A program made the position numbers and the translations under genes. The notes below the pieces were generated by a model that was not told where the DNA came from, searched no databases, and worked only from the letters and a program-made list of their open reading frames with translations. Positions 16,998-55,885 of a stretch of DNA of 64,000 bases are shown here, one piece after another (positions within the stretch are counted from its first letter, which is position 1; every line of letters begins with the position of its first letter). The stretch is from SAR86 cluster bacterium AG-422-E19. Its GTDB lineage: Bacteria; Pseudomonadota; Gammaproteobacteria; Magnimaribacterales; AG-339-G14. The DNA lies in NCBI GenBank assembly GCA_003213595.1, contig QCMR01000002.1, positions 128,015-192,014 on the forward strand, in the 5' to 3' direction.

Positions 16998-18618
16998 AAA
17001 GTTTTCTTCAGAAACTAACCTCCCTTGGTGGAAAAAAGGAGTTATTTACCAGATTTATCCACGTTCTTTCAATGACACTTCTGGAAATGGTATTGGTGAT
17101 CTTAAAGGAATAACCAAAAAAATTTCTTACTTATCTTCACTAGGTATTGATGCTATATGGCTTTCTCCAATTTTTACCTCTCCTATGAGAGATATGGGTT
17201 ACGATGTTTCCAATTACACTGACATTGATCCCTTATTTGGAAATATTCTTGATTTTGAAAAACTCATAGAAAAAGCCAAAAAAAATAAAATTAAAATAAT
17301 AATTGATCAAGTTTTATCACATAGTTCTGATGCTCATCCTTTCTTTAAGATCAGTAAATCAAATAAAAATAATTCAAAATCAGATTGGTACGTCTGGGCC
17401 GATCCTAAGCCTGATGGCTCTCCTCCAAATAATTGGCTTTCTGTTTTTGGAGGCTCTGCATGGGAATGGGATACCAGCAGAGAGCAATATTACTTACATA
17501 ATTTTTTAAAGTCGCAACCGGACTTTAACTTTCATAATAAAGATGTTCAGAAATGGTTACTTTCAACTGTTAAGTTTTGGTTAGAAAAAGGTGTTGATGG
17601 CTTTAGGCTTGATACTGCAAATTATTATTTTCATGATAAAAAATTAAGAAATAATCCTGCTATCAAATCAAGCGCTTCTGGAAAAAATCCTTATTATTTC
17701 CAAAATTTAAAATATTCAATTAATCAAAAGGATAATTTTGCATTCCTAAAAAAGCTAAGAAAGCTTACAGATGAATATAAAGAAACGACGATGATTGGAG
17801 AAATTTCAAATGTTGAATTACAAGCTAAATACACTGCAAATAATGACAAACTTCATATGGCTTACAGTTTTGATCTTCTCAGAGATGAATTTTCTCCAAA
17901 ACACATAAGGAACACTGTTTCTAAATTTTTTAAAGAAACTAAAGATGGATGGCCGACATGGAGCTTTTCCAATCACGATGTAGTGAGGCATTTGTCTAGG
18001 TGGAATCAAACAAAAAAAAATAGACAAAAGTTTGCAAAATTAGCCTGTGTATTACTTATGTCGTTGAAAGGAACACCATGTATTTACCAAGGCGAAGAGC
18101 TTGGTCAAACTCAAACCAAAATTGAATTTGATGAAATTAAAGATCCTCCTGGAATAAAATTCTGGCCTATGGATTTTGGTAGAGATGGATGTAGAACTCC
18201 CATGATTTGGGATGAAAGCAAAAAATTTGCTGGTTTTTCAAATGCAAAGCCATGGCTTCCAATTAAAAAAGAACAAATTATGAACTCTGTTAAAAAGCAA
18301 TTAAGAAATAAAAATTCAACCTATTATTTTTATAAGACATTTATTTCTTTAAGAAAAAAAATATCCTTCTTTTCCGAAGAGATTTATTTTGAAAATAATA
18401 ATGAAGTTCTGATTTTTTATAGGGGAAATGAGAAAGAAATTTGTTGTGTGTTTAATTTATCGGAAAGAGAAATTAAGATAGATAATACTTATGGAAAAAT
18501 CATACCTTTTCTTCCATCTCAGCAGGTCAGGCAAGAATCAAAAAAATTAAATCTATCTTCTTATGGATTTTGTTTCTTGTCGAAAACAGATTTTAAGATT
18601 TCGAATGAAAAATCTTAA
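16990..18618 (+). CDS. GH13 alpha-glucosidase / oligo-1,6-glucosidase family
   Basis: GTG start. [31 protein letters not shown] and FSNHD match GH13 conserved regions I-IV. Confidence 0.9.
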
Positions 18619-19487
18619 AGAGACATTTCTTCTAAAATAGATTTTCCTATTTCAGATGGGCTTTTAACAGTCCTTACACCAGCACTTTCTAGGGCATTAA
18701 ATTTTTCTTCTGCCGTTCCTTTACCACCAGAAATTATTGCACCTGCATGCCCCATTCTTTTTCCAGGAGGTGCACTCACTCCTGCAATATAGCCTACAAC
18801 AGGCTTAGAGACGTTGTCTTTAATATATTCTGCAGCCTCTTCCTCAGCTGAACCCCCGATTTCTCCAACCATAACAATTCCCTCTGTTTGAGGATCCTCT
18901 TCAAAAAGCTTTAAAACATCGATAAAGCTTGTACCAGGAAGCGGGTCTCCGCCTATACCCACACAAGTAGACTGTCCGAGACCTGCCTTGGTAGTCTGAT
19001 CAACTGCTTCGTAAGTAAGAGTTCCTGACCTTGAGACAATTCCTACCTTACCAGGGCTATGGATGAAACCCGGCATAATTCCTAATTTGCATTCACCTGG
19101 AGTAATTATTCCTGGACAATTTGGACCAATAATTCTTATACCTTCCTTATCTGCTAATTCTTTAACTTCTAACATATCCAAGGTTGGAATACCTTCGGTT
19201 ATACAGATTATCAATTCAATACCGCTTTCTATTGCCTCAATTATTGAAGGTTTACAAAATTTGGCGGGGACAAAGATTATACTAGCACTTGCCTCGGTAG
19301 CTTGTTTTGCTTCTTTTACGGAATTGAAGACTGGGAGATCCAAATGAGTTTGCCCGCCCTTCCCAGGAGTGACGCCACCTAAAATATTGGTTCCGTACTC
19401 TATCGCTTGGCTACAATGCAATGTGCCTTGTGCTCCAGTAAACCCCTGACAAATCACTTTGGTTTTTTTGTTAATTAAAATACTCAT
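18615..19487 (-). CDS. sucD: Succinyl-CoA synthetase alpha subunit
   Basis: 290 aa. [11 protein letters not shown], and the phosphohistidine loop [11 protein letters not shown]. Confidence 0.98.
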
Positions 19488-20641
19488 CCTGAGTTTTTTA
19501 CTGCTAATTCAGCTGCATCTGAAAGATCATCTGCAGAAATGATATTAAGATCGCTTTCAGATAGAATTTTTTTTGCCTCTTCTGAATTATTCCCTTTAAG
19601 TCTCACAATAACAGGTATATCAACTCCAACTTCTGAAACAGCTGAAACTATCCCAGAGGCAACGACATCACACCTTACAATTCCACCAAAAATATTTATC
19701 AAGACCGACTTAACTTTTTCATCAGAAAGAATGATCTTAAAAGCCTCGGCTACTCTTTCTTTATCTACAGTGCCCCCAACATCCAAAAAATTCGCTGGAA
19801 ATCCGCCAGAAAGCTTAATGATATCCATTGTTGCCATTGCAAGACCAGCTCCATTAACCATACATCCTATATTTCCATCCAAAGCCACATAGTTAAGATC
19901 CCATTTTGCTGCTTCGATTTCCTTTTGATTTTCTTGCGAAGCGTCTCGCAGTTTTAAAAGATCTTCTTGTCTAAACAATGCATTTTCATCAATATTTATT
20001 TTTGCATCCAAACATTTTAGAGAATCATTTTGATCTATAACCAAAGGATTGATTTCAATCAAAGAAAGATCTTTTTCAAAAAATAAAGTTACCAATCCAG
20101 AAACTATTTTTTTAAATTCTACGGTTTGGTTGGAAGACAACTCTAGACCGTTAACCAAAGGAAGAACGTCAAAGTCTTCTTTCTTATTTTTGCTGACATT
20201 AATCTTAAAAATTTTCTCAGGACTTTTCTCGGCGACTTTTTCAATATCCATACCGCCTTCTGGTGAGGCCATCACCACCAAAGATTGAGAGCTCCTGTCT
20301 ATCACAGCACCAAGATAAAGTTCTTTTTGGATCGAGGTACTTTCTGCAATCATTATTGCTGAAACTGGCTTTCCTTCATCTCCAGTCTGGTGATTGACAA
20401 ATTTCTTTCCGAGCCAATCTTTAGCAAATTCTATAATCTCATCAATGTCGTTTGTTATTTTAACTCCGCCTACTTTCCCCCTTCCGCCAGCATGAACTTG
20501 GACTTTTGCAACAAATTCTTCGCCGTCTAATTCATTAATAAGATTAGAAATTTCTTCTGCTGAAAAGGCTACTACAGAGTTAGCTGTTGGTAAGTCGAAA
20601 TTTTCTAGGAGTTGTTTTGACTGATATTCGTGTAAATTCAA
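19484..20641 (-). CDS. sucC: Succinyl-CoA synthetase beta subunit
   Basis: 385 aa with a TTG start. [13 protein letters not shown]-terminus, ATP-grasp domain. Overlaps sucD by 4 nt. Confidence 0.98.
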
Positions 20642-20651
20642 AGTGTTAGTA

Positions 20652-21392
20652 TTATAAAGCCCTTTTTACTAACATTTTTTTAATTTCACCAATTGCTTTT
20701 GTAGGGTTTAAGCCTTTAGGACAGACTGAAACGCAGTTCATGATTCCATGGCATCTGAAAACACTAAAAGCGTCTTCTAATTGCTCTAATCTTTCTTCTG
20801 TAGCAGTATCTCTGCTGTCAGCAATAAATCTGTACGCTTGTAGAAGAGCTGCTGGTCCCAAAAATTTATCAGGATTCCACCAAAAGGATGGGCAGGCAGT
20901 AGAGCAGCAACCGCACATTATGCACTCGTAAAGGCCATCTAACTTTTCTCTTTCCTCGATTGTTTGAGGAATGGCTTCTCTGGTATCGACTTTTTTATCA
21001 GTAATCAGATATGGTTTTACTTTTTTATACTGATCAACAAATTGTTTCATATCAACAATTAAATCTTTAATAACAGGAAGTCCTGGCAGAGGTCTAATAG
21101 AAAGCTTATTAGATTTAGCTACATCAGATAAAGGCGTAATGCACCCAAGACCATTTTTACCATTTATGTTTAAACCATCAGATCCGCAAACTCCTTCACG
21201 ACAAGATCTTCTGAAAGAAATTGATGGATCCTGTTCCTTTGCAAGCATCAAAACGTCTAAAACCATTAAATCTTTTTCTGTAGGTATGTCTATATCAAAG
21301 TCCTGCATGTATGGCTTTTCTTGCTTCAGAGGATCATACCTGTAGATACTCAATCGAAGTGTTTTGATCTCACTTGCTGCAATCGCATTCAT
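20652..21392 (-). CDS. sdhB: Succinate dehydrogenase iron-sulfur subunit
   Basis: Cys clusters for the 2Fe-2S (CREGVCGSDG), 4Fe-4S (CIMCGCCSTACP) and 3Fe-4S (CHGIMNCVSVCP) centres. Confidence 0.98.
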   Translation of the reverse strand: MNAIAASEIKTLRLSIYRYDPLKQEKPYMQDFDIDIPTEKDLMVLDVLMLAKEQDPSISFRRSCREGVCGSDGLNINGKNGLGCITPLSDVAKSNKLSIRPLPGLPVIKDLIVDMKQFVDQYKKVKPYLITDKKVDTREAIPQTIEEREKLDGLYECIMCGCCSTACPSFWWNPDKFLGPAALLQAYRFIADSRDTATEERLEQLEDAFSVFRCHGIMNCVSVCPKGLNPTKAIGEIKKMLVKRAL

Positions 21393-23197
21393 TAATAAGT
21401 CCTGACAATTGGTTGGAAAGCCTGAACTTGTTTAGGCCTAAAGTTGACATCTCTTTTAGATACTTGCTTAGTATCGGAAAAATAAATTGAGTGTTTAAGC
21501 CAATTTTCATCATCTCTATCTGGGAAATCTTCTCTGGAGTGAGCTCCTCTACTTTCTTTCCTTTCGTTTGCACTAATTGCAGTAGCTTCAGCAACTTCGA
21601 TTAGATTGAGGAGTTCCAAAGCTTCAACTCTGGCTGTATTAAACTGTGAAGATTTATCAGCAAGATGAATGTTTTGAGATTTATCTCTTAGATCAGAGAC
21701 TTCTTTAATGCCATTTTCCATCAATTCTTCAGTTCTAAATACTCCAAAATTCATTTGCATTGTTTTTTGTAAGTCTTTCTTAACTTCAACAAAGTTTTCA
21801 CCAGATTGACTTACATTTACTCTGTTGAGATTTCTAAGAGCATAGTCGATATCATCAGATGAAGGATCATCCATTTTTATGCCTGCCTTGAAACTTTCTT
21901 CTATGTGTAATCCAGCAGATCTTCCAAAAACAATAAGGTCTAGAAGAGAATTTCCTCCTAATCGATTACCGCCATGAACGGAGACACAAGCTGCTTCTCC
22001 TGCAGCATAGAGACCATCTATGATTTTATCTGTACCGTCAGGATTTTGAGAAATGACCTGACCATGAACATTGGTTGGAATGCCTCCCATTGCATAATGA
22101 CAAGTGGGAACAACCGGAATAGGATGTTCGGCAGGATCAACATGAGCAAACCTTTTTGATAATTCTGTTACTCCAGGCAGTCTTTTGTGAACGATTTCTG
22201 GCCCTAAATGATCAAGTTTTAAATAAACATGATCAGCATCTGGACCACAGCCTCTACCTTCTAAAATTTCAGTAAACATGGATCTTGCAACAACATCTCT
22301 GCTAGCTAGGTCTTTATAGTTAGGTGCATATCTTTCCATGAATCGTTCGCCGTCTTTGTTAACCAAGTAACCACCTTCTCCTCTACAACCTTCAGTTACT
22401 AAAGTTCCATGACCATGAATACCTGTTGGATGAAACTGCCACATCTCCATATCTTGCACAGGGAAACCCGCTCTCAATGCCATTCCAGTACCATCACCGG
22501 TGTTGATGAGAGCGTTTGAAGTTGTTTGATATATCCTTCCAGCTCCTCCAGTAGCTAAAACAGTAGCTTTTGATTTTAAAAAGTATGGTTCGCCGGATTC
22601 AATTTCAAAGGCAATAACTCCAACAACCTGATCATTTTGATTTTTTACAAGATCAACTGCGAACCACTCTGAAAGAAAGTTGGTTCCCGCTTTAACGTTT
22701 GCTTGGAAAAGTGTATGCAAAAGAGCATGTCCTGTTCTATCGGCAGCAGCACAAGTTCTTTCTGCTTGTCCCCCTTTTCCGTAATCTTTTGACTGACCTC
22801 CAAATGCTCTTTGATAAATTTTGCCTTCTTCAGTTCGAGAAAATGGTAATCCCATATTTTCCAATTCAAATATTGCTTCAGGACCTTCTTTGCACATGTA
22901 TTCTATGGAATCCTGATCTCCAATAAAATCTGAGCCTTTAACAGTGTCATACATGTGCCATCTCCAATCGTCATCTGGGTCTGCACTTTGAATTGAGCAA
23001 GTGATACCACCTTGAGCAGAAACAGTATGCGAACGAGTAGGAAAAACTTTAGAAACAACAGCCGTATTCATTCCTGATTTAGCAAGCTGAAGAGATGCCA
23101 TCATTCCAGAACCACCACCACCAACGATAATTCCGTCAAATTCCTTTACCGGTAAAGTTGATGCATCTAAAAAGGTACCTTTTCCATTCATTGCCAT
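21392..23197 (-). CDS. sdhA: Succinate dehydrogenase flavoprotein subunit
   Basis: 601 aa. [12 protein letters not shown] fold, the covalent-FAD histidine context SHTVSAQGG, and the HPTG motif. Confidence 0.98.
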
Positions 23198-23202
23198 AAT
23201 TA

Positions 23203-23565
23203 CTAACCTAAAATATAAAAACTACAAATAATTAAACCAAGAGCTTGGAGCCAACTAAAACCTATGACTGCAGGTCTAAGAATTTTAGCGGAGGCACCAA
23301 TTTGCGCCTGAGTAAGATAATCAGTCGCTACGTTCCAAATTCCTTGCACTGAATGATAAGCAATTGAAATGGCGACGATTACCGTAAAAATTTCTACAAG
23401 GAGAATATCAAAAAAGCCAGATAGTTGTTCGTATTTAAAGTCTCTATTGACTAACCAATAGAAGGTTATAACTGAAAAATATACTGCTTGAATTGTCGCT
23501 GTGATTCTTACTAAGACATAATCAAAGATTCCTGTTTTTTTTAATCTGTATAGCTTCGTTACCAT
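23203..23565 (-). CDS. sdhD: Succinate dehydrogenase membrane anchor subunit SdhD
   Basis: 120 aa with 3 TM helices. Called mainly from its position between sdhC and sdhA. Confidence 0.85.
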
Positions 23566-23927
23566 GCCAAATAAAGAAAAGAGAAGAAAAATAATCCAGT
23601 TGAAAGAAAAGTAGCAAGAGCTGACATCCTGCCGGCTTTAAGAGTTTCCCAGTATCCAAAGTCCATTACTAAATGTCTTAAGCCAGAAATAAAATGATAA
23701 AAAATTGCCGTAATGAAAAAAGTAAATAAGCTTTTAAAGAGAATATTTTCAAATAATAAAATGATGATTTCGTAATTTGCTTCAGAACTCAAAGAAAAAA
23801 CTAATAACCCCATCATTGGAAGGGATAAAACGAAAATAGCAACTGCAGATAGTCTATGCAGAATAGAGGAAACCCCTGGCAAAGGTAAAGCAATCTTGAA
23901 TAGATTTAGGTATCTAGGCGAATTCAT
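23559..23927 (-). CDS. sdhC: Succinate dehydrogenase cytochrome b556 subunit SdhC
   Basis: 122 aa with 3 TM helices. HRLSAV and GLRHL histidine contexts. First gene of the sdh cluster. Confidence 0.85.
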   Translation of the reverse strand: MNSPRYLNLFKIALPLPGVSSILHRLSAVAIFVLSLPMMGLLVFSLSSEANYEIIILLFENILFKSLFTFFITAIFYHFISGLRHLVMDFGYWETLKAGRMSALATFLSTGLFFFSFLYLAW

Positions 23928-30934: not shown

Positions 30935-31663
30935 TTAGTTGTTAGATAGTTCTTTTACAAGCTCGTTGTCGAAATTAAAACTTTCACCACAACCACATTC
31001 AGCAGAAACATTTGGATTCAAAAAAACAAGTTCTTGATTTAAATTTTTTTTAACAAAATCGAGTTTAGTGCCTTTAAGGAATACAAAACTCTTATCGTGA
31101 ATAAATAAATTTACTCCATTTACTAAGCCAGCGAGATCGTTTTTGTCTTTTTCATCAATCAAATCAAGCTGATACGCAAAGCCTGAACAGCCTGAGTCTT
31201 TCAAAGATATTCGAATTCCTAGAGAATTATTAGCATTTATCATTTCAGTTAAATGGCTAGCCGCAGTATTGGAAATATCAAAATCTTTTGAAGAAATTTC
31301 TTTATTTGAGTCATTGGAGGGTTTGGGGTGATTTTCTGAAACCATATTTATTGTGTATTTAGGAATTTGTATTTCCAAATCTGTATCTTCAACTATTGTT
31401 TGACAACTTAATCTAGATTTTGGTTCCAAACCCCAAGCTTTATCTAATAAATCTTCCTCATCATCTGAAGAATCATTTAAGGAATTAAAACCTTCTGTAA
31501 AGATAACATGACAAGTAGTACAGGCGCATGATAGCTCACAGGCGTGTTCTAGGTCTATATCCTGATTGAGAAGGTTTTCACAGACAGAAACTCCTGACTC
31601 TGCTTCAAATTCTGCTCCTTGAGGACATATTTCAGCATGCGGCAATACTTTGATTTTCGGCAT
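30935..31663 (-). CDS. Fusion protein: full-length ISC [2Fe-2S] ferredoxin (Fdx, aa 1-~112) joined to an IscA-type A-type carrier (aa ~130-242)
   Basis: The N-terminal half aligns end to end with E. coli Fdx (MPKI..LPH...CP.GA..EA..G...EHACE.SCACTTCH...EGF.SL...S..E.D.LDKAWGLEP.SRLSCQ...D.DL...IP.YTIN). A Ser/Asn/Lys-rich linker follows. The C-terminal half aligns with IscA (SGCSGFAY...LDFVK...F.NPNV..ECGCGESF). Confidence 0.88.
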   Translation of the reverse strand: MPKIKVLPHAEICPQGAEFEAESGVSVCENLLNQDIDLEHACELSCACTTCHVIFTEGFNSLNDSSDDEEDLLDKAWGLEPKSRLSCQTIVEDTDLEIQIPKYTINMVSENHPKPSNDSNKEISSKDFDISNTAASHLTEMINANNSLGIRISLKDSGCSGFAYQLDLIDEKDKNDLAGLVNGVNLFIHDKSFVFLKGTKLDFVKKNLNQELVFLNPNVSAECGCGESFNFDNELVKELSNN

Positions 31664-32112: not shown

Positions 32113-33348
32113 TTATGCCCACTCTATTTTATCTAAATCTACGCCATCTTGATACATTTCCCAGAGTGGAGAGATTTCTCTAAGTTTGTCAACAGAGTCT
32201 TTTACAAGCTCTACAGTCTCTTTAACCTCTTGTTCCTTTGTGAACCTTCCAAAAGAGAATCGTATCGAGCTATGAGCAAGTTCATCTTTTCTTCCTAATG
32301 CCCTTAAAACATAAGAAGGTTCAAGGCTAGCAGAGGTACAAGCAGAGCCAGATGAAACTGCAATATTTTTCAATGCCATTATTAAAGACTCGCCTTCAAC
32401 AAAGTTGAATGACATGTTAAAGATTCCTGGAAATGTGTTATCAATTGCTCCGTTTATATAAACTTCTTCCATATCTTTTAATCCGTTCCACAAAATGTCT
32501 CTGTATTTATAAAGATTTTTAAAATCTTCTGACATCTTTTCTTTGGCAAGCTTAAAGGCTTCACCCATCCCAACGATCTGATGTGTTGGAAGAGTACCTG
32601 CCCTTATACCTCTTTCTTGGCCCCCGCCATGAAATAAAGGTTGAAGACGCACTCTAGGCTTTCTTCTAATATACAACGCTCCAATCCCTTTAGGACCATA
32701 AATTTTATGAGCAGAAAATGACATTAAATCGACTTCTAAATTCTCAATATCAATTGGAATTTTCCCTGCGCTTTGTGCTGCATCAACGTGAAAGATACTT
32801 CCATTTTGTTTTACAATTCTTCCGATAGCCTCAATATCGTTTATAACGCCTATTTCATTATTGATATGCATCAAAGAAACTAAAACAGTATCCTCTCTGA
32901 GGGCTGCTTTGACAGACTCAGGCGTAATAATTCCATCACTGTTTGGCTCTAGATAAGTTACTTCGTAAGATTCGCTTTCAAGTTGTCTGCATACATCTAA
33001 AACAGCTTTGTGTTCAATTTTGGAAGTGATTATGTGTTTACCTTTATCGGAGTAAAAGTATGCTGCACCTTTGATAGCTAGGTTGTCTGATTCAGTAGCT
33101 CCAGAGGTCCAAATAATTTCTCTGGAATCACAATTTAATAAGTTAGCAACATTTACTCGAGCTTCCTCAACTAATTCTTCAGCCTTCCAGCCAAAAACAT
33201 GAGATCTTGATCCAGAATTACCAAATGCTCCATCGACTGATAAACATTCTTTCATTTTATCTACCACCAATGAATCAACTGGAGTAGTAGAAGCGTAATC
33301 AAAATAGTAAGTATTCATTTCATCTAAAATTCGCGTGAATAATATCAC
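32113..33348 (-). CDS. iscS: Cysteine desulfurase IscS
   Basis: The PLP lysine context [12 protein letters not shown] and the active-site loop SSGSACTS. The likely true start is Met11 (ATG at 33318, [13 protein letters not shown]). Confidence 0.96.
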
Positions 33349-33361
33349 GAAAACAATAATC

Positions 33362-33427
33362 TAAAAAGGTACATTTAATTGAAAGCAAACATTTCATAAA
33401 CTTATTACAAAGTATTGTACCTTTTTA
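33362..33427. repeat. Perfect 12-bp inverted repeat TAAAAAGGTACA / TGTACCTTTTTA in the iscS / korC-like divergent intergenic region
   Basis: Arms at 33362..33373 and 33416..33427, with a 42-bp spacer. A third copy of the AAGGTACA core lies at 33474..33481. The right arm overlaps the predicted -35 of the plus-strand promoter. Confidence 0.5.
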
Positions 33428-33443
33428 TTAAAAATACTATAAT
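33415..33443 (+). promoter_or_regulatory. Putative sigma-70 promoter for the 2-oxoacid oxidoreductase cluster
   Basis: -35 TTGTAC (33415..33420), exact 17-nt spacer, consensus -10 TATAAT (33438..33443), about 45 nt upstream of the ATG at 33488. Pattern match only. Confidence 0.4.
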
Positions 33444-33487
33444 TTACTACTTATAGAGTTGTGAGATGAAAATAAGGTACACATTAA

Positions 33488-35518
33488 ATGTTAGATAAAA
33501 AATATTTGTTTAAAAGAAATAACGTATGGTGGGTAAAACTTGCTGTACCTTTATCTTTAAGAAGTGAATTAGGCTATGATTTAAGAAGAACTACTGGCGA
33601 AACAGACTTAGATAAAGCAATTCCTATCAGAGATAAAATCATTGAAGATTTTAAAACTGAATTTCAAATAAGGAAAGTTAATGCAGATGATAAAGGTATC
33701 GTGCTTCGAGGGACTGAGCACATGCAAAAAACTGATATTTCTGATCCACAATATTTTCATAAGGTAGTTGATTGCCAATATGCATGCCCTGCTCATACCA
33801 ATGTTCCCGAATATATTCGTCTAATTGCTCAGAAAAAATATGACGACGCATATATGCTTAACTGGGAATCTAACGTATTTCCAGGAATACTTGGAAGGAC
33901 CTGTGATAGGCCTTGTGAACCTGCATGTCGGAGAGGGAGAACTCACGACAAGCCAGTAGCTATCTGTAGATTAAAAAGAGTCACTTATGATTATAAGAAT
34001 GATATTGATCCTTATCTTCCTGAAATTCCAAAAGTTAAAAATGGTAAAAAAATTGGCCTGATTGGAGCAGGCCCTGCGTCTTTGACAGTGGCAAGAGACT
34101 TATTACCCTTAGGTTATGAAGTTACTATTTTTGAGAAAGATAATAAGCCTGGTGGATTAATGAGAACTAATATTCCTTCTTTTAGGCTTCCAGCGGAAGT
34201 TTTGGACGAAGAGGTTTATAGAATTATCAAAATGGGAGCTGAACTGAAAACCAATTCATATATCGATAGCCTAGAAAATGTTATTGATTCTTTTGATGCT
34301 GTATTTGTTGGCACTGGGGCACCAAAAGGTAAAGATCTTGAAATACCTGGTAGAAAAGAAGCAAGTGAAAATATTCATATTGGTATCGATTGGTTAACTA
34401 GTATTGCTTTTGAGCATACCAAATCAATAGGTAAGAAAGTTATTGTCATTGGCGGTGGAAATACAGCTATGGATTGCTGTAGGACAGCCATTAGGTTGGG
34501 AGCAGACGACGTTAAAGTGACTGTCAGAAGTCCAAAGTCAGACATGAAGGCATCTGATTGGGAGTTAGAAGAAGCAATTGACGAGGGAATTCCTATTCTA
34601 GATAACACTTCTCCAAAAGAATTTTTATTGGATGATGAGGGCAAACTTAAGGGTATGAAGTTTGAAAAAATGGAAGCTCAATATACCGATGGTAAAAGAA
34701 AGTTAATTCCTACGGGCGAAGAAATAATTATTGAATGCGATGACGTGCTTTTAGCAATTGGTCAAGATAATGCCTTTCCATGGATAGAAAAAAATATCGG
34801 AATTGAATTTAATGAATGGGACTGCCCTATTGTTGATAAAACCACAATGCAGTCTTCTCACCCAAAAGTCTTTTTCGGTGGTGATGCTGCCTGGGGTCCT
34901 GAAAACATCATATGGGCTGTAGCGCATGGTCATCAAGCTGCAATTTCCATTGATAATTTTTGTAGTGAGGTTGACTTATTTGATAGGCCTCCACCGCTTA
35001 CAAATTTAGTAAGTCAAAAAATGGGAATTCATGAATGGTCTTATGACAATGGCATTTCTCAAGAAGCTCGTTTAGAAGTTCCTCATGCAGATTTAAAACA
35101 AGCTCTAAGTGATCTTAAAATGGAAGTTGAGCTTGGCTTTGATGAGAAACTCGCGCTCGATGAAGCGCAAAGATGTCTTAATTGCGATATGCAGACAGTT
35201 TTTCAAGAAAAGCTTTGTATAGAGTGTGATGCTTGTGTTGATATTTGTCCGACAGACTGTATTACATTCACTACAAATGATACTGAAGAAAAGGTCAGAG
35301 AAAAACTTAGAGTGCCTGCTTTGAATTTGGATCAAGATCTTTATGTCTCAGAAAAACTAGCTACTGGAAGAATAATGGTTAAAGATGAAGATATGTGCGT
35401 TCATTGTGGACTGTGTGCAGAAAGGTGTCCAACTGGAGCTTGGGACATTCAAAAAAATAATTATATTGAAGCGCATAACTTGAACAAAGATAGAGTTAAA
35501 GCCAAGGAAGTGGCTTAG
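33488..35518 (+). CDS. GltD-like NAD(P)H flavoprotein fused to a C-terminal 2x[4Fe-4S] ferredoxin domain (putative electron-transfer subunit of the adjacent KorAB)
   Basis: N-terminal Fe-S region CPAHTNVP...CDRPCEPACRRG. Two dinucleotide folds (IGLIGAGPASL, VIVIGGGNTAMDCCRTA). C-terminal CLNC...CIECDACVDICP and CVHCGLCAERCP. The first 78 aa are atypical. An internal ATG at 33722 has a GAGG Shine-Dalgarno 8 nt upstream and may be the real start. Confidence 0.8.
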   Translation: MLDKKYLFKRNNVWWVKLAVPLSLRSELGYDLRRTTGETDLDKAIPIRDKIIEDFKTEFQIRKVNADDKGIVLRGTEHMQKTDISDPQYFHKVVDCQYACPAHTNVPEYIRLIAQKKYDDAYMLNWESNVFPGILGRTCDRPCEPACRRGRTHDKPVAICRLKRVTYDYKNDIDPYLPEIPKVKNGKKIGLIGAGPASLTVARDLLPLGYEVTIFEKDNKPGGLMRTNIPSFRLPAEVLDEEVYRIIKMGAELKTNSYIDSLENVIDSFDAVFVGTGAPKGKDLEIPGRKEASENIHIGIDWLTSIAFEHTKSIGKKVIVIGGGNTAMDCCRTAIRLGADDVKVTVRSPKSDMKASDWELEEAIDEGIPILDNTSPKEFLLDDEGKLKGMKFEKMEAQYTDGKRKLIPTGEEIIIECDDVLLAIGQDNAFPWIEKNIGIEFNEWDCPIVDKTTMQSSHPKVFFGGDAAWGPENIIWAVAHGHQAAISIDNFCSEVDLFDRPPPLTNLVSQKMGIHEWSYDNGISQEARLEVPHADLKQALSDLKMEVELGFDEKLALDEAQRCLNCDMQTVFQEKLCIECDACVDICPTDCITFTTNDTEEKVREKLRVPALNLDQDLYVSEKLATGRIMVKDEDMCVHCGLCAERCPTGAWDIQKNNYIEAHNLNKDRVKAKEVA

Positions 35519-37350
35519 TGGAAAATCCTGTAAAAGTAGATCCGATTAATTCTCTTAATGACTTTGTCATTAAATTTGCAAATGTAAATGGAACAGGTTC
35601 TGCAAGTGCTAACCAAATGTTTGCTAAATCTATCTTTAGGATGGGAATACCTATTAGTCCAAAAAATATTTTTCCTTCAAATATCCAAGGTTTGCCTACT
35701 TGGTTTGAAGTCAGAGTAAATAATAAGGGATACTTAGGAAGTAGAGGCGGTGTAGATATTGCTGTTGCTATGAATCCCCAAACTTATTCTCAAGACGTTG
35801 AGGAAATTTTAGAGGGTGGTTACCTTTTATATGATTCTACTTGGAAAAGAAATTTCAATAGGGACGATATCACTATTATCGAAATACCTTTAACGCAACT
35901 TTGTGTAGATTCTTTTACTAACGCCAAACAAAGGGCATTATTTAAAAATATTGCCTATGTAGGAGCATTATCACCTCTTTTGGAAATTGAATATGAAGTT
36001 CTTGAGAAATTAATTTCAGAACAGTTTGTAAACAAGCCTGCGCTTATCGAACCAAATATAAAAGCTTTAAACATAGGAAGAGATTACGTTTTAAAGAATT
36101 TACCTTATCCACTGGGAATTAACGTTAAAAGAGAAGATAAGCTTAAAGATAAAATACTTGTTTCTGGAAATGATGCATGTGGATTAGGAGCGGTCTATGG
36201 AGGAGCTACATTTTGCTCTTGGTATCCAATAACACCATCTACCTCTGTTGCTGAAGGCTTTGAAAAATACGCCTCAAAATATAGGGTTGATCCTCAGACG
36301 GGTAAAAATAACTATATAAGTGTTCAAGCAGAAGATGAATTAGCTGCAGTTGGAATGGCGATAGGTGCAAATTGGAATGGCGCTAGAGGCTTCACTGCAA
36401 CAAGCGGCCCGGGCATCTCCTTAATGAGTGAATTTTTAGGTTTAGCTTATTTTGCTGAAGTACCTCTGGTTATTTTCAACATTCAAAGAGGTGGACCTTC
36501 AACTGGAATGCCAACCAGAACTCAACAATCCGATATCCTTACATGTGCTTATGCTTCACATGGTGACACTAAACATGTACTTTTATTTCCAGAAGATCCT
36601 CAGGAGTGTTTTGAGTTTTCTGCAGAAGCTTTTAATTTAGCAGAAAGATTACAAACTCCTGTATTTGTAATTAGTGATTTAGATATTGGAATGAATGATT
36701 GGGTTACAGATAAATTTGATTGGGATGATGAACAGAAATATGACAGAGGAAAAGTTCTTAAGGCTGAAGATTTAGACAAGATGGATAATTTTGGAAGATA
36801 TTTAGATGTTGATGACGATGGTATTTGCTATAGAACCTATCCTGGAACCCACCCTGAAAAGGGAGCATTCTTTACAAGAGGAACATCTCATGATGAATAT
36901 GCTAGGTACACTGAAAATGGAGATATCAACGAGCAAACTTTAACGAGATTGGTTAAAAAGTTTAGGACTGCGTCTGAATTAGTTCCTGATCCAATTATTA
37001 ATCTTTCCGAAAAACAAGGAAGTTCTGGGGTAATTTTCTATGGAAGTACATCTGCAGCAATGTATGAGGCTAAAGATATTCTCAATGAAAATAACATTGA
37101 GGTAGATCTCATGAGAATTAGATCTTTCCCTTTTAATTTAGATGTATGGGAATTTATTGAAAACCATGACCTTATCTATGTGATTGAACAAAACAGAGAT
37201 AGTCAAATGAGAACCTTGATAATGGCTGAAGGAGGAATTTCAGCAGAAAAACTTAGATCACTAGTGTGGTTCAATGGGGATCCAATTCAGGCTAAATTTA
37301 TTGCTAAGAAAATATATGAAAGAGAATCACAACAGGCATTAATCTCATGA
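35518..37350 (+). CDS. korA: 2-oxoacid:ferredoxin (acceptor) oxidoreductase alpha subunit (KorA-type, fused gamma+alpha domains)
   Basis: 610 aa with a GTG start overlapping the upstream stop by 1 nt (TAGTG). KFANVNGTGSASAN N-terminal domain, then the pyrimidine-binding domain SWYPITPST...ATSGPGISLM. Confidence 0.88.
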   Translation: MENPVKVDPINSLNDFVIKFANVNGTGSASANQMFAKSIFRMGIPISPKNIFPSNIQGLPTWFEVRVNNKGYLGSRGGVDIAVAMNPQTYSQDVEEILEGGYLLYDSTWKRNFNRDDITIIEIPLTQLCVDSFTNAKQRALFKNIAYVGALSPLLEIEYEVLEKLISEQFVNKPALIEPNIKALNIGRDYVLKNLPYPLGINVKREDKLKDKILVSGNDACGLGAVYGGATFCSWYPITPSTSVAEGFEKYASKYRVDPQTGKNNYISVQAEDELAAVGMAIGANWNGARGFTATSGPGISLMSEFLGLAYFAEVPLVIFNIQRGGPSTGMPTRTQQSDILTCAYASHGDTKHVLLFPEDPQECFEFSAEAFNLAERLQTPVFVISDLDIGMNDWVTDKFDWDDEQKYDRGKVLKAEDLDKMDNFGRYLDVDDDGICYRTYPGTHPEKGAFFTRGTSHDEYARYTENGDINEQTLTRLVKKFRTASELVPDPIINLSEKQGSSGVIFYGSTSAAMYEAKDILNENNIEVDLMRIRSFPFNLDVWEFIENHDLIYVIEQNRDSQMRTLIMAEGGISAEKLRSLVWFNGDPIQAKFIAKKIYERESQQALIS

Positions 37351-38399
37351 GTTACTTTAAACCAATAAATAAACACCCCAATTTAGAAAAAAATAAGTTA
37401 GGTCTCACTAGAAGAGATTATGAAGGTGGCGTTTCTACGCTATGTGCTGGATGTGGCCATGATTCAATAAGCGCTTGCATCATTGAAGCCTGTTTTAGGT
37501 TAAATATAGAAGCATACAAAGTAGCTAAATTGTCTGGAATTGGATGTTCTTCAAAAGCTCCTGCATACTTTTTAAACGCCTCTCATGGATTTAATTCTGT
37601 TCATGGAAGGATGCCTTCTATAGCAACAGGAGCAAATTGCGCTAATGAGGATTTACTATATTTAGGCGTATCAGGAGATGGAGATAGTGCTTCAATTGGT
37701 ATAGGTCAATTTATTCATGCAATAAGGAGGCAAGTGAACATGGTATATTTCGTTGAAAATAATGGAACATATGGTTTAACGAAAGGACAATTTTCCGCAA
37801 CAAATGACCTTGAATCTAAAAATAAATATGGAGAAGATAATTTATTCCCGCCAATTGATCTTACTTCAATGGCAATTCAGATGGGAGCATCATATGTAGC
37901 TAGAAGCTTTTCAGGAGATAGGGATCAGTTAGTTCCTTTAATTATGGGGGCAATTCAACACAAAGGTTTTGCGCTCTTGGATATTATTAGTCCTTGTGTG
38001 ACCTTTAATAATCATGATTCTTCAACTAAAAGTTACGATTACATTCGAAATCACAATGAAGCTATGGGCAAAACAGATTTTGTTCCCCTAGGAGAGGAAA
38101 TTAAGACTAATTATGATGACGGTTCGAGTGTAGAAGTAAAGCTTCATGATGGTTCAAGACTTTCATTAGAAAAAACAGATCATAATTTTGATCCCACGGA
38201 TGCTGGGAAATCTTTGGAGTTAATTAGGGAAAAAAATAAAGAAGGAAAAATTATCACCGGATTGCTTTATGTAGACAATAAATGCAAGCCTTTAACTGAA
38301 ATAATGGACTTGCCTGATAAACCACTTAACACTTTAGAACAGGATGAACTTTGTCCTGGCAGCGAGATATTGGAAGAAATTAATAAAGGTTTAAGTTAA
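37347..38399 (+). CDS. korB: 2-oxoacid:ferredoxin oxidoreductase beta subunit (KorB-type, TPP-binding)
   Basis: 350 aa. CAGCGHD cluster ligands and the TPP motif GDGDSASIG...(x)...VENNGTYGLTKGQ. ATGA overlap with korA. Confidence 0.9.
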   Translation: MSYFKPINKHPNLEKNKLGLTRRDYEGGVSTLCAGCGHDSISACIIEACFRLNIEAYKVAKLSGIGCSSKAPAYFLNASHGFNSVHGRMPSIATGANCANEDLLYLGVSGDGDSASIGIGQFIHAIRRQVNMVYFVENNGTYGLTKGQFSATNDLESKNKYGEDNLFPPIDLTSMAIQMGASYVARSFSGDRDQLVPLIMGAIQHKGFALLDIISPCVTFNNHDSSTKSYDYIRNHNEAMGKTDFVPLGEEIKTNYDDGSSVEVKLHDGSRLSLEKTDHNFDPTDAGKSLELIREKNKEGKIITGLLYVDNKCKPLTEIMDLPDKPLNTLEQDELCPGSEILEEINKGLS

Positions 38400-39104
38400 A
38401 TTTACACCAAGTCTGTGTGCAATTTCTTGGTAAGATTCAACCACGTCTCCAAGACCCAGTCTAAATCTATCTTTATCTAATTTCTTTTTAGTTTCCTTGT
38501 CCCATACTCTACAACCATCAGGAGTAAATTCATCTCCAAGATATATTTTTCCTGAGTTTTTTCCAAACTCTAATTTGAAGTCAACAAGGATTAAATCCGC
38601 TTTAAGAAATAAATCTACTAAATGATCGTTAATTTCTAATGTGAGATTTTTTAAAGCATCTATATCATCTGCTTCTGCCCAGCCAAAAGATATTATGTGA
38701 TTATCATTTATCATTGGATCGCCTAAGTCGTCATCTTTATAAAAGAATTCGAAAATTGGATTTTCAAATTTCATCCCCTCCTCAAGACCAAGGCGCTTGC
38801 AAATACTTCCTGCGGCATAATTCCTCACGACACATTCAATTGGAAACATATCTAAAGATAAAACCAAACTCTCGCGGTCATTTAGTTCTTCTAGAAGATG
38901 ACAAGCTACGCCTTTGGAGTCTAAATGATTCATAATAAAGTTATTGAATCTGTTATTGACTGTACCCTTTCCGGCTAGTTGTTCTATTTTTTTTCCATCA
39001 AATGCAGAGGTGTCGTCAGTAAAATCCATTACAAGCTTAGATTCATCTGCTGTCTTATAAAGCTCTTTAGCTTTTCCTTTTGTTAGTAATTCTTTCTTTT
39101 CCAT
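38391..39104 (-). CDS. purC: Phosphoribosylaminoimidazole-succinocarboxamide (SAICAR) synthase
   Basis: 237 aa. GKAKELY, SAFDG and DEFTPDGCRVWD motifs. Its 3' end overlaps the korB 3' end by 9 nt (convergent genes). Confidence 0.95.
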   Translation of the reverse strand: MEKKELLTKGKAKELYKTADESKLVMDFTDDTSAFDGKKIEQLAGKGTVNNRFNNFIMNHLDSKGVACHLLEELNDRESLVLSLDMFPIECVVRNYAAGSICKRLGLEEGMKFENPIFEFFYKDDDLGDPMINDNHIISFGWAEADDIDALKNLTLEINDHLVDLFLKADLILVDFKLEFGKNSGKIYLGDEFTPDGCRVWDKETKKKLDKDRFRLGLGDVVESYQEIAHRLGVNLT

Positions 39105-55558: not shown

Positions 55559-55885
55559 ATGACTTTTATTGTTGGCCAAGGATGCATCAATTGTAAGCAC
55601 ACCGATTGTGTCGAAGTATGTCCTGTAGATTGTTTCTATGAAGGAGAAAATACTTTAGTCATCAATCCAGACGAATGTATAGATTGCGGTTTGTGTGAGC
55701 CTGAGTGCCCCATTGAAGCCATTTATGCAGAAGACGAAGTTCCAGCTGATCAAATAGAATTTATTGAAATAAATGAAAAATATTCAAAGATTTGGCCGAA
55801 CATTACTGAGGCAAAAGATCCCATGCCAGATCACGAGGAGTGGAAGGAAAAAACAAATAAAATTAATGTATTAATCCTTGAATAA
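55559..55885 (+). CDS. fdxA: 7Fe ferredoxin (Azotobacter FdI type, [3Fe-4S][4Fe-4S])
   Basis: 108 aa. [21 protein letters not shown]...[14 protein letters not shown], near colinear with FdI-type ferredoxins. Confidence 0.92.

Follow-up and report, generated by a model that had tools for sequence, protein, structure and literature searches.

A predicted three-subunit 2-oxoglutarate:NADP+ oxidoreductase in a marine SAR86 bacterium, with an additional N-terminal domain on its flavoprotein subunit

A 64,000-nucleotide stretch of the genome of SAR86 cluster bacterium AG-422-E19 (contig QCMR01000002.1, positions 128,015 to 192,014; hereafter the window, whose own numbering is used throughout) contains three consecutive genes on the plus strand that encode, in this order, a GltD-like flavoprotein with a fused ferredoxin domain (open reading frame 1, ORF1), KorA and KorB, of 676, 610 and 350 amino acids (aa), respectively. 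Their products probably form one complex, a three-subunit 2-oxoglutarate:NADP+ oxidoreductase (KGOR), which would convert 2-oxoglutarate to succinyl-CoA in the oxidative tricarboxylic acid (TCA) cycle of a host devoid of a lipoamide-dependent 2-oxoglutarate dehydrogenase (OGDH). The locus is filed here as a member of the KGOR family, with an activity predicted from sequence.

Results

ORF1 (33488..35518, 76.3 kDa), assigned as the flavoprotein subunit by Pfam and NCBIfam matches, is followed on the same strand by korA (35518..37350), which starts with GTG and encodes a 68.3-kDa protein of fused gamma-like and alpha domains, and by korB (37347..38399), which encodes a 38.3-kDa thiamine pyrophosphate (TPP)-binding beta subunit with one [4Fe-4S] cluster. 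At the junction between ORF1 and korA (GCT-TAG-TGG, 35513-35521) the last G of the TAG stop codon (35516-35518) is also the first of the GTG start codon at 35518, upstream of which lies a Shine-Dalgarno-like stretch, AAGGAAG, and at the junction between korA and korB (TC-ATGA-G) the two genes overlap by ATGA at 37347-37350. The three genes are translationally coupled, and coordinates and junction reads agree with the TAGTG and ATGA overlaps and the protein sizes given in a first-pass annotation made from the sequence alone, whose description of a GltD-like flavoprotein with a fused 2x[4Fe-4S] ferredoxin, a KorA and a KorB is borne out by the Pfam and NCBIfam domains. Elsewhere in the 64 kb, CxxCxxCxxxCP motifs occur only in SdhB and FdxA, so that, as had been claimed, no separate delta-ferredoxin gene adjoins korAB. 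FdxA itself (55559..55885, plus strand) had been called correctly as a 7Fe-type ferredoxin (NF045490 FdxA_Protbact, 161 bits against a cut-off of 135 bits) and could serve as another, soluble acceptor of electrons. The korB gene and the convergent purC gene (SAICAR synthase, 38391..39104, minus strand) share their last 9 nucleotides (nt), at 38391-38399. No intrinsic terminator was found at the korB 3' end, where this overlap leaves no space, and a scan for promoters and terminators gave sites no more frequent than in shuffled sequence. Synteny of the locus extends to six strains, the GC content is about 34%, and the exact KorB sequence is present on 306 public contigs, where it is labeled '2-oxoglutarate ferredoxin oxidoreductase subunit beta'.

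One genome per species was scanned with an alignment of ORF1 relatives, which yielded 80 loci with homologues 51-70% identical; 17 of these loci end at a contig edge and 63 have enough downstream DNA to be informative. By strict criteria, KorA and KorB are encoded immediately 3' of the ORF1 homologue and on the same strand in 57 of the 63 loci, in another three the genes are colinear and show overlaps or frameshifts, in one an insertion separates korA from korB, and the remaining two are exceptions. The order GltD::ferredoxin-KorA-KorB is kept in 60-61 of the 63 informative loci, and an arrangement conserved to this extent is not due to chance. Intergenic gaps are mostly between -40 and +40 nt, the most frequent value being a 4-nt overlap. 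The triplet is found in at least six phyla, its hosts belonging to Alpha-, Beta- and Gammaproteobacteria, Bacteroidota, Acidobacteriota, Gemmatimonadota and Actinomycetota, and these hosts are mostly aerobes, such as the cultured Bradyrhizobium, Novosphingobium, Roseateles, Cyclobacterium, Zhongshania, Porticoccaceae and Halieaceae. In the case of Bradyrhizobium (loci L017, L028, L033, L036 and L037), the three colinear proteins are 64, 60 and 59% identical to those of the window. The view of the first-pass annotation that such an enzyme is unusual in an aerobe does not hold. The family occurs overwhelmingly in aerobic taxa, and two-subunit 2-oxoacid:ferredoxin oxidoreductases (OFORs) that lack an internal ferredoxin domain have been described as characteristic of aerobes and as comparatively tolerant of oxygen (PMC5020499). 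For the KGOR-type family an aerobic host is typical and no surprise.

In public databases homologues of ORF1 are labeled 'FAD-dependent oxidoreductase', 'glutamate synthase small chain' or 'formate dehydrogenase beta subunit'. These generic labels, together with the presence of the FdxA gene within the window, could suggest that ORF1 acts on its own, as an NAD(P)H:ferredoxin or glutamate-synthase-type reductase encoded beside an ordinary ferredoxin-dependent KorAB that uses FdxA. Such an organization is highly improbable in view of the near-universal colinearity and frequent stop/start overlaps across six phyla, of the fused ferredoxin domain being present exactly where KorAB is without one, and of the published classification of KGOR-alpha in the same flavoprotein family (PMC10134865). 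The link between ORF1 and korAB made in the first-pass annotation is upheld by this colinearity, and the invariant place before korAB suggests that the flavoprotein homologues complete a 2-oxoglutarate:NADP+ oxidoreductase as its third subunit.

ORF1 is an Fe-S flavoprotein of the GltD/NfnB/DsrL type with a C-terminal 2x[4Fe-4S] ferredoxin domain. Its GltD-type N-terminal Fe-S domain, of the kind known as domain II of dihydropyrimidine dehydrogenase (DPD), was matched by Fer4_20 (aa 95-171, 33770..34000, plus strand, E 3.5e-18) and contains the invariant ligands C96, C100, C139, C143, E144, C147 and C160. Domains binding flavin adenine dinucleotide (FAD) and NAD(P)H follow (Pyr_redox_2, aa 190-481, 34055..34930, plus strand, E 2.5e-25), with the GxGxxG folds GAGPAS for FAD (193-198) and GGGNTA for NAD(P)H (322-327). 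The C-terminal part (35162..35440, plus strand) comprises an RCLNC motif (C563, C566) and the 2x[4Fe-4S] ferredoxin domain with the cysteine sets C577/580/583/587 and C637/640/643/647, covered by a Pfam dicluster Fer4_7 match at aa 577-651; the motifs CIECDACVDICP and CVHCGLCAERCP were both found in ORF1. Among 75 family members, the 17 Cys/Glu ligand positions show no variation or almost none. R347, which follows the second beta-alpha-beta fold, is conserved in every one of the 75 sequences and is aligned with the first arginine of the YRR motif of a solved NfnA structure (chain 9n5u_A), which is consistent with a preference for NADP+ over NAD+. In a PDB sequence search the nearest solved relatives of ORF1 were NfnB/NfnI-L, GltD (the beta subunit of glutamate synthase) and DPD, with E values from 1e-85 to 1e-38. 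In ordinary GltD an RCLNC-type cysteine pair is N-terminal, ahead of the CxxxCP motif, whereas the pair in ORF1 (EAQRCLNC, aa 559-567, 35162-35188) lies downstream of the flavin domains and directly before the ferredoxin domain, a position equivalent to that in chain 9n5u_A.

KorA displayed Pfam matches to POR (25-188) and POR_N (224-391) and scored 582 bits on TIGR03710, the model for alpha subunits of 2-oxoacid:acceptor oxidoreductases (cut-off 483). KorB contains a TPP_enzyme_C domain, the GDG...NN motif (G110-D111-G112 ... N138-N139) and four cluster cysteines (C33, C36, C67 and C217) that are invariant across the family. On TIGR02177, KorB scored 186 bits, under the cut-off of 262 bits, with only residues 32-224 aligned, and such scores below the cut-offs of beta-subunit models arise because the C-terminal third diverges. 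The best solved relative of KorA is chain 6N2N_A (227 bits) of the 2-oxoglutarate:ferredoxin oxidoreductase (OGOR) from Magnetococcus, which is also the closest solved OFOR overall for KorA and KorB. The YPITP motif of KorA (aa 236-240, with T239) and its catalytic R324 are invariant across 66 sequences. An assignment to oxidoreductases for indolepyruvate (IOR) or branched-chain 2-oxoacids (VOR), which the first-pass annotation had named as incompatible with its own reading, was rejected, as the IOR_alpha model gave only 54 bits (cut-off 651) and the VorB model 133 bits (cut-off 399).

Pocket residues were identified by transferring the positions described for StOFOR1 (PMC5020499) onto KorA and KorB via HMMER alignments. 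According to this mapping, T239-alpha and R324-alpha would contact the 1-carboxylate of the substrate, while S54-alpha, T329-alpha, T456-alpha, K70-beta and L144-beta would form the side-chain pocket. The KorB residues lining this pocket, K70-beta and L144-beta, are invariant across the family, as are YPITP and R324. K70 is the counterpart of K49b in StOFOR1, whose replacement by isoleucine abolished activity with 2-oxoglutarate (PMC5020499).

The transfer of electrons from 2-oxoglutarate to NADP+ corresponds to a potential drop of about 180 mV, so that oxidation with NADP+ as acceptor is strongly downhill. On the minus strand of the window (18615..23927), sdhC-sdhD-sdhA-sdhB are followed directly by sucC-sucD, all six genes giving NCBIfam equivalog matches above cut-off, and no sucA or sucB gene was detected between sdhCDAB and sucCD. 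This cluster is without the sucA-sucB(-lpd) block that Gammaproteobacteria usually have. In a published comparison of SAR86 families, RedeBAC7D11 and Magnimaribacteraceae were without sucA/sucB and possessed a porA|G + porB oxidoreductase, and the other two families showed the reverse (PMC11582366 and its supplement). By its GC content, marine sources and sucAB/OFOR pattern, the host agrees with SAR86 and would probably belong to RedeBAC7D11 as described in that study. The local absence of sucAB, this complementary distribution of sucAB and OFOR, and the redox drop together favor an oxidative use of 2-oxoglutarate. The first-pass annotation had held that neither substrate nor direction could be read from the sequence; this was too cautious, since both can be read in part.

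In a further alternative, the enzyme would run in reverse as an NADPH-driven 2-oxoglutarate synthase that carboxylates succinyl-CoA, or its GltD-like flavin would bifurcate electrons in the manner of NfnB. The closest solved OFOR, that of Magnetococcus marinus (MmOGOR), is indeed a reverse-TCA enzyme and the closest solved relatives of ORF1 are the bifurcating NfnB/NfnI-L subunits. However, NADPH, at about -320 mV, is too weak a reductant for a couple near -500 mV unless a second acceptor of high potential takes part, the window and the 63 informative loci contain no NfnA/PyrK-like partner gene, and the context is heterotrophic, with sdh and sucCD and without sucAB. That oxidation with NADP+ is downhill, with no second acceptor encoded nearby, speaks against a role as synthase, and this alternative as a whole is very unlikely.

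More serious, although still improbable, is the alternative of a broad-specificity 2-oxoacid:NADP+ oxidoreductase that would act on both pyruvate and 2-oxoglutarate and replace pyruvate dehydrogenase (PDH) together with OGDH. S54-alpha, T329-alpha, K70-beta and L144-beta are identical to the residues of the StOFOR1 pocket. On the other hand, the pocket is invariant family-wide, including Bradyrhizobium, and thus displays no remodeling specific for SAR86, and the family member from Azoarcus evansii is reportedly highly specific for 2-oxoglutarate. The SAR86 families with an OFOR and without sucA/sucB also lack PDH E1/E2, and the authors proposed that one OFOR may oxidize pyruvate too (PMC11582366 supplement). 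Against a need for this second activity stands the beta-oxidation-centered metabolism described for SAR86 (PMC11582366), which gives acetyl-CoA without PDH. We retain 2-oxoglutarate as the probable main substrate.

Homologues of ORF1 from outside the clade of the window begin at the residue aligned to M79 (MKPTD...), and in the window protein and in relatives at least 68% identical to it this residue is preceded by a conserved 60-aa domain and a variable linker. In the window this extension comprises 78 aa (aa 1-78, 33488..33721, plus strand), with a DUF6538-like domain at aa 6-59, and occurs only in the window's clade. The description of ORF1 in the first-pass annotation was right with regard to the flavoprotein and ferredoxin domains and missed this extra domain. 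On DUF6538 (PF20172, gathering threshold 27 bits) the window protein scored 19.1 bits and the isolated domain 22.9 bits, while three homologues (P0009, P0081 and P0008) scored 36.8, 35.8 and 28.2 bits, all above the threshold; 15 positions of the domain do not vary among 30 homologues. An AlphaFold2 (AF2) model of the domain (pLDDT 81.5) displays a strand-strand-helix-strand arrangement, in which three strands form a sheet accompanied by a short helix, and then a long helix. A fold search with Foldseek found nothing in the PDB and only weak matches in a viral library, including integrases and AP2-like HNH endonuclease domains (E of at least 0.02). Searches with the domain sequence gave no significant match among PDB sequences or PHROGs, and no mention of DUF6538 was found in the literature searched. 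A DUF6538-like domain, with a possible integrase/AP2-like fold, on a KGOR flavoprotein looks new. The ancestral start codon M79 is kept in the window (ATG at 33722, with GAGGGA at 33708-33713). In the related loci L087 and L090 it has become TTA, so that the long form is obligatory there, and the production of two isoforms from an internal start was rejected as a general feature.

The intergenic region between ORF1 and the divergently transcribed iscS (33349..33487) contains three of four clustered copies of the 8-mer AAGGTACA, which occur in both orientations at 33366-33373 (plus), 33416-33423 (minus), 33474-33481 (plus) and, inside ORF1, at 33544-33551 (minus). The 64 kb contain five copies as compared with 1.46 expected, a number that none of 100 shuffled sequences reached; four of the five lie within 33366-33551 and one in the other 63.8 kb. 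Each of the five lineages with the N-terminal domain (the window, L087, L088, L089 and L090) has two to five copies of the core AGGTACA between positions -300 and +100 of ORF1 (at most 0.16 expected), while 71 of 72 loci of family members without the domain have zero copies. L090 also carries the palindrome AGGTACATGTACCT upstream of ORF1. This clustering of AGGTACA at the 5' end of the operon looks new, and judged from the sequence pattern it may serve autoregulation. The five domain-bearing lineages form one clade, so that the co-occurrence of domain and motif may reflect shared ancestry only.

Candidate binders of the repeats are the N-terminal domain, an IscR encoded elsewhere, or another factor. 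In the more distant relatives L089 (2384-2974) and L090 (2346-2801) an iscR gene of the Rrf2 family, with cluster-binding cysteines, is located between iscS and ORF1. It is absent from this place in the window, L087 and L088, and no homologue was detectable in the whole 64 kb; the AGGTACA motif persists in these three despite the absence of iscR, which weakens IscR as the binder without fully rejecting it. A tentative and rather unlikely possibility, drawn by analogy with PutA, is that the KGOR flavoprotein of this marine clade acquired both an arm-binding domain of the integrase type (AP2-like, DUF6538) and the repeats that this domain recognizes. The protein would then bind AGGTACA at its own 5' end and at the iscS promoter, as a redox-sensing, self-regulating enzyme in lineages without iscR at the locus.

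On the other side of this intergenic region, iscS occupies 32113-33348 on the minus strand. A 242-aa ORF at 30935-31663, also on the minus strand, encodes a [2Fe-2S] ferredoxin of the iron-sulfur cluster (ISC) system (TIGR02007, aa 2-111) fused to an A-type carrier of the IscA/SufA type (aa 130-230), which are encoded by two separate genes in some related contigs. No hscBA genes are found between iscA and fdx in the window.

Discussion

If the three proteins act together, catalysis would begin with the binding of TPP, coenzyme A and 2-oxoglutarate by KorA and KorB, with T239 and R324 of KorA gripping the 1-carboxylate and K70 of KorB lying near the distal carboxylate. Decarboxylation would leave a hydroxyalkyl-TPP intermediate, from which two electrons would exit singly via the lone [4Fe-4S] cluster of KorB. 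In place of a free ferredoxin, the flavoprotein might dock its C-terminal 2x[4Fe-4S] domain in the pocket of the missing domain V and accept these electrons, which would then pass to the two GltD-type [4Fe-4S] clusters, to FAD and, by hydride transfer, to NADP+.

The closest functional precedent is the enzyme of A. evansii. As purified by Ebenau-Jehle, Boll and Fuchs in 2003, it is said to consist of subunits of about 63, 62 and 37 kDa, to contain FAD, TPP and Fe-S clusters, and to be specific for 2-oxoglutarate and NADP+, and the N-terminal sequences of its subunits reportedly matched three adjacent ORFs of Bradyrhizobium japonicum. Here, the calculated masses are 67.1 kDa for the flavoprotein without its N-terminal extension (76.3 kDa with it), 68.3 kDa and 38.3 kDa, which are similar, and both enzymes would share three subunits (a GltD/NfnB/DsrL-family flavoprotein, KorA and KorB), the cofactors FAD, TPP and Fe-S, and, as reported for A. 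evansii, no requirement for free ferredoxin. The two differ in that the window flavoprotein adds the 78-aa extension with its DUF6538-like domain, and in that A. evansii is a denitrifier in which the enzyme feeds benzoyl-CoA reduction, whereas the window belongs to an aerobic streamlined marine host in which it would stand in place of OGDH. The likeness to this three-subunit enzyme, noted in the first-pass annotation, is supported by a published phylogeny that lists the A. evansii 'KGOR-alpha' within the GltD/NfnB/DsrL flavoprotein family (PMC10134865).

With the two-subunit (alpha-beta)2 enzymes MmOGOR (6N2N/6N2O) and StOFOR1 and StOFOR2 of Sulfolobus tokodaii (5B46-5B48), KorA and KorB share the fusion of gamma and alpha domains in KorA, a single-cluster KorB, the lack of domain V, and the conserved YPITP, catalytic arginine and TPP motif. 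Those enzymes reduce free ferredoxin, whereas in the window a translationally coupled upstream gene supplies a flavoprotein that carries a ferredoxin domain of its own, and the C-terminus of KorB extends about 55 aa further. Unlike other GltD-like modules (NfnB/NfnI-L, glutamate synthase beta and DPD), which are combined with NfnA, GltB or a dihydroorotate dehydrogenase-like domain, ORF1 would have a TPP-dependent 2-oxoacid oxidoreductase as its partner. DsrL resembles ORF1 in the addition of a C-terminal ferredoxin domain and differs from it in having DsrAB as partner. The pyruvate:NADP+ oxidoreductase (PNO) of Euglena and Cryptosporidium likewise has an OFOR wired straight to NADP+ via a flavoprotein module, but that module is a cytochrome-P450-reductase-type FMN/FAD domain fused to a single-chain pyruvate:ferredoxin oxidoreductase, unrelated to the GltD-like subunit.

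Several points weigh against the assignment as an NADP+-dependent, 2-oxoglutarate-oxidizing complex. At S54-alpha, K70-beta and L144-beta the pocket is the same as in the broad-specificity StOFOR1, which makes use of pyruvate possible, and PDH E1/E2 are also missing in the SAR86 families with OFOR (PMC11582366 supplement). The choice of NADP+ over NAD+ hangs on one conserved arginine and on analogy, and the full-length AF2 model of ORF1 is poor (pLDDT 50.4) and too weak for a test of domain docking. For the connection with the enzyme purified from A. evansii the published basis is one sentence in a secondary paper (PMC10134865), and a protein search with a query from Dechloromonas (Rhodocyclales) returned Burkholderiales names only and no homologue from Azoarcus or Aromatoleum.

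That an OFOR replaces sucAB in SAR86 is already in print (PMC11582366, 2024) and is not new, while the flavoprotein subunit is recognized neither in that study nor in public annotation. The type of enzyme is known; the unexplained DNA-binding-like domain is the addition of the marine lineage. With regard to annotation, thousands of flavoprotein homologues in aerobes of at least six phyla carry the generic labels mentioned above and would be candidates for the third subunit of a KGOR. The N-terminal domain and its accompanying motif offer a modest, testable lead on gene regulation in a regulator-poor genome. For the physiology of SAR86, an enzyme that would make NADPH where the lipoamide-dependent complex yields NADH would change the way in which redox balance, iron demand and oxygen sensitivity are modeled.

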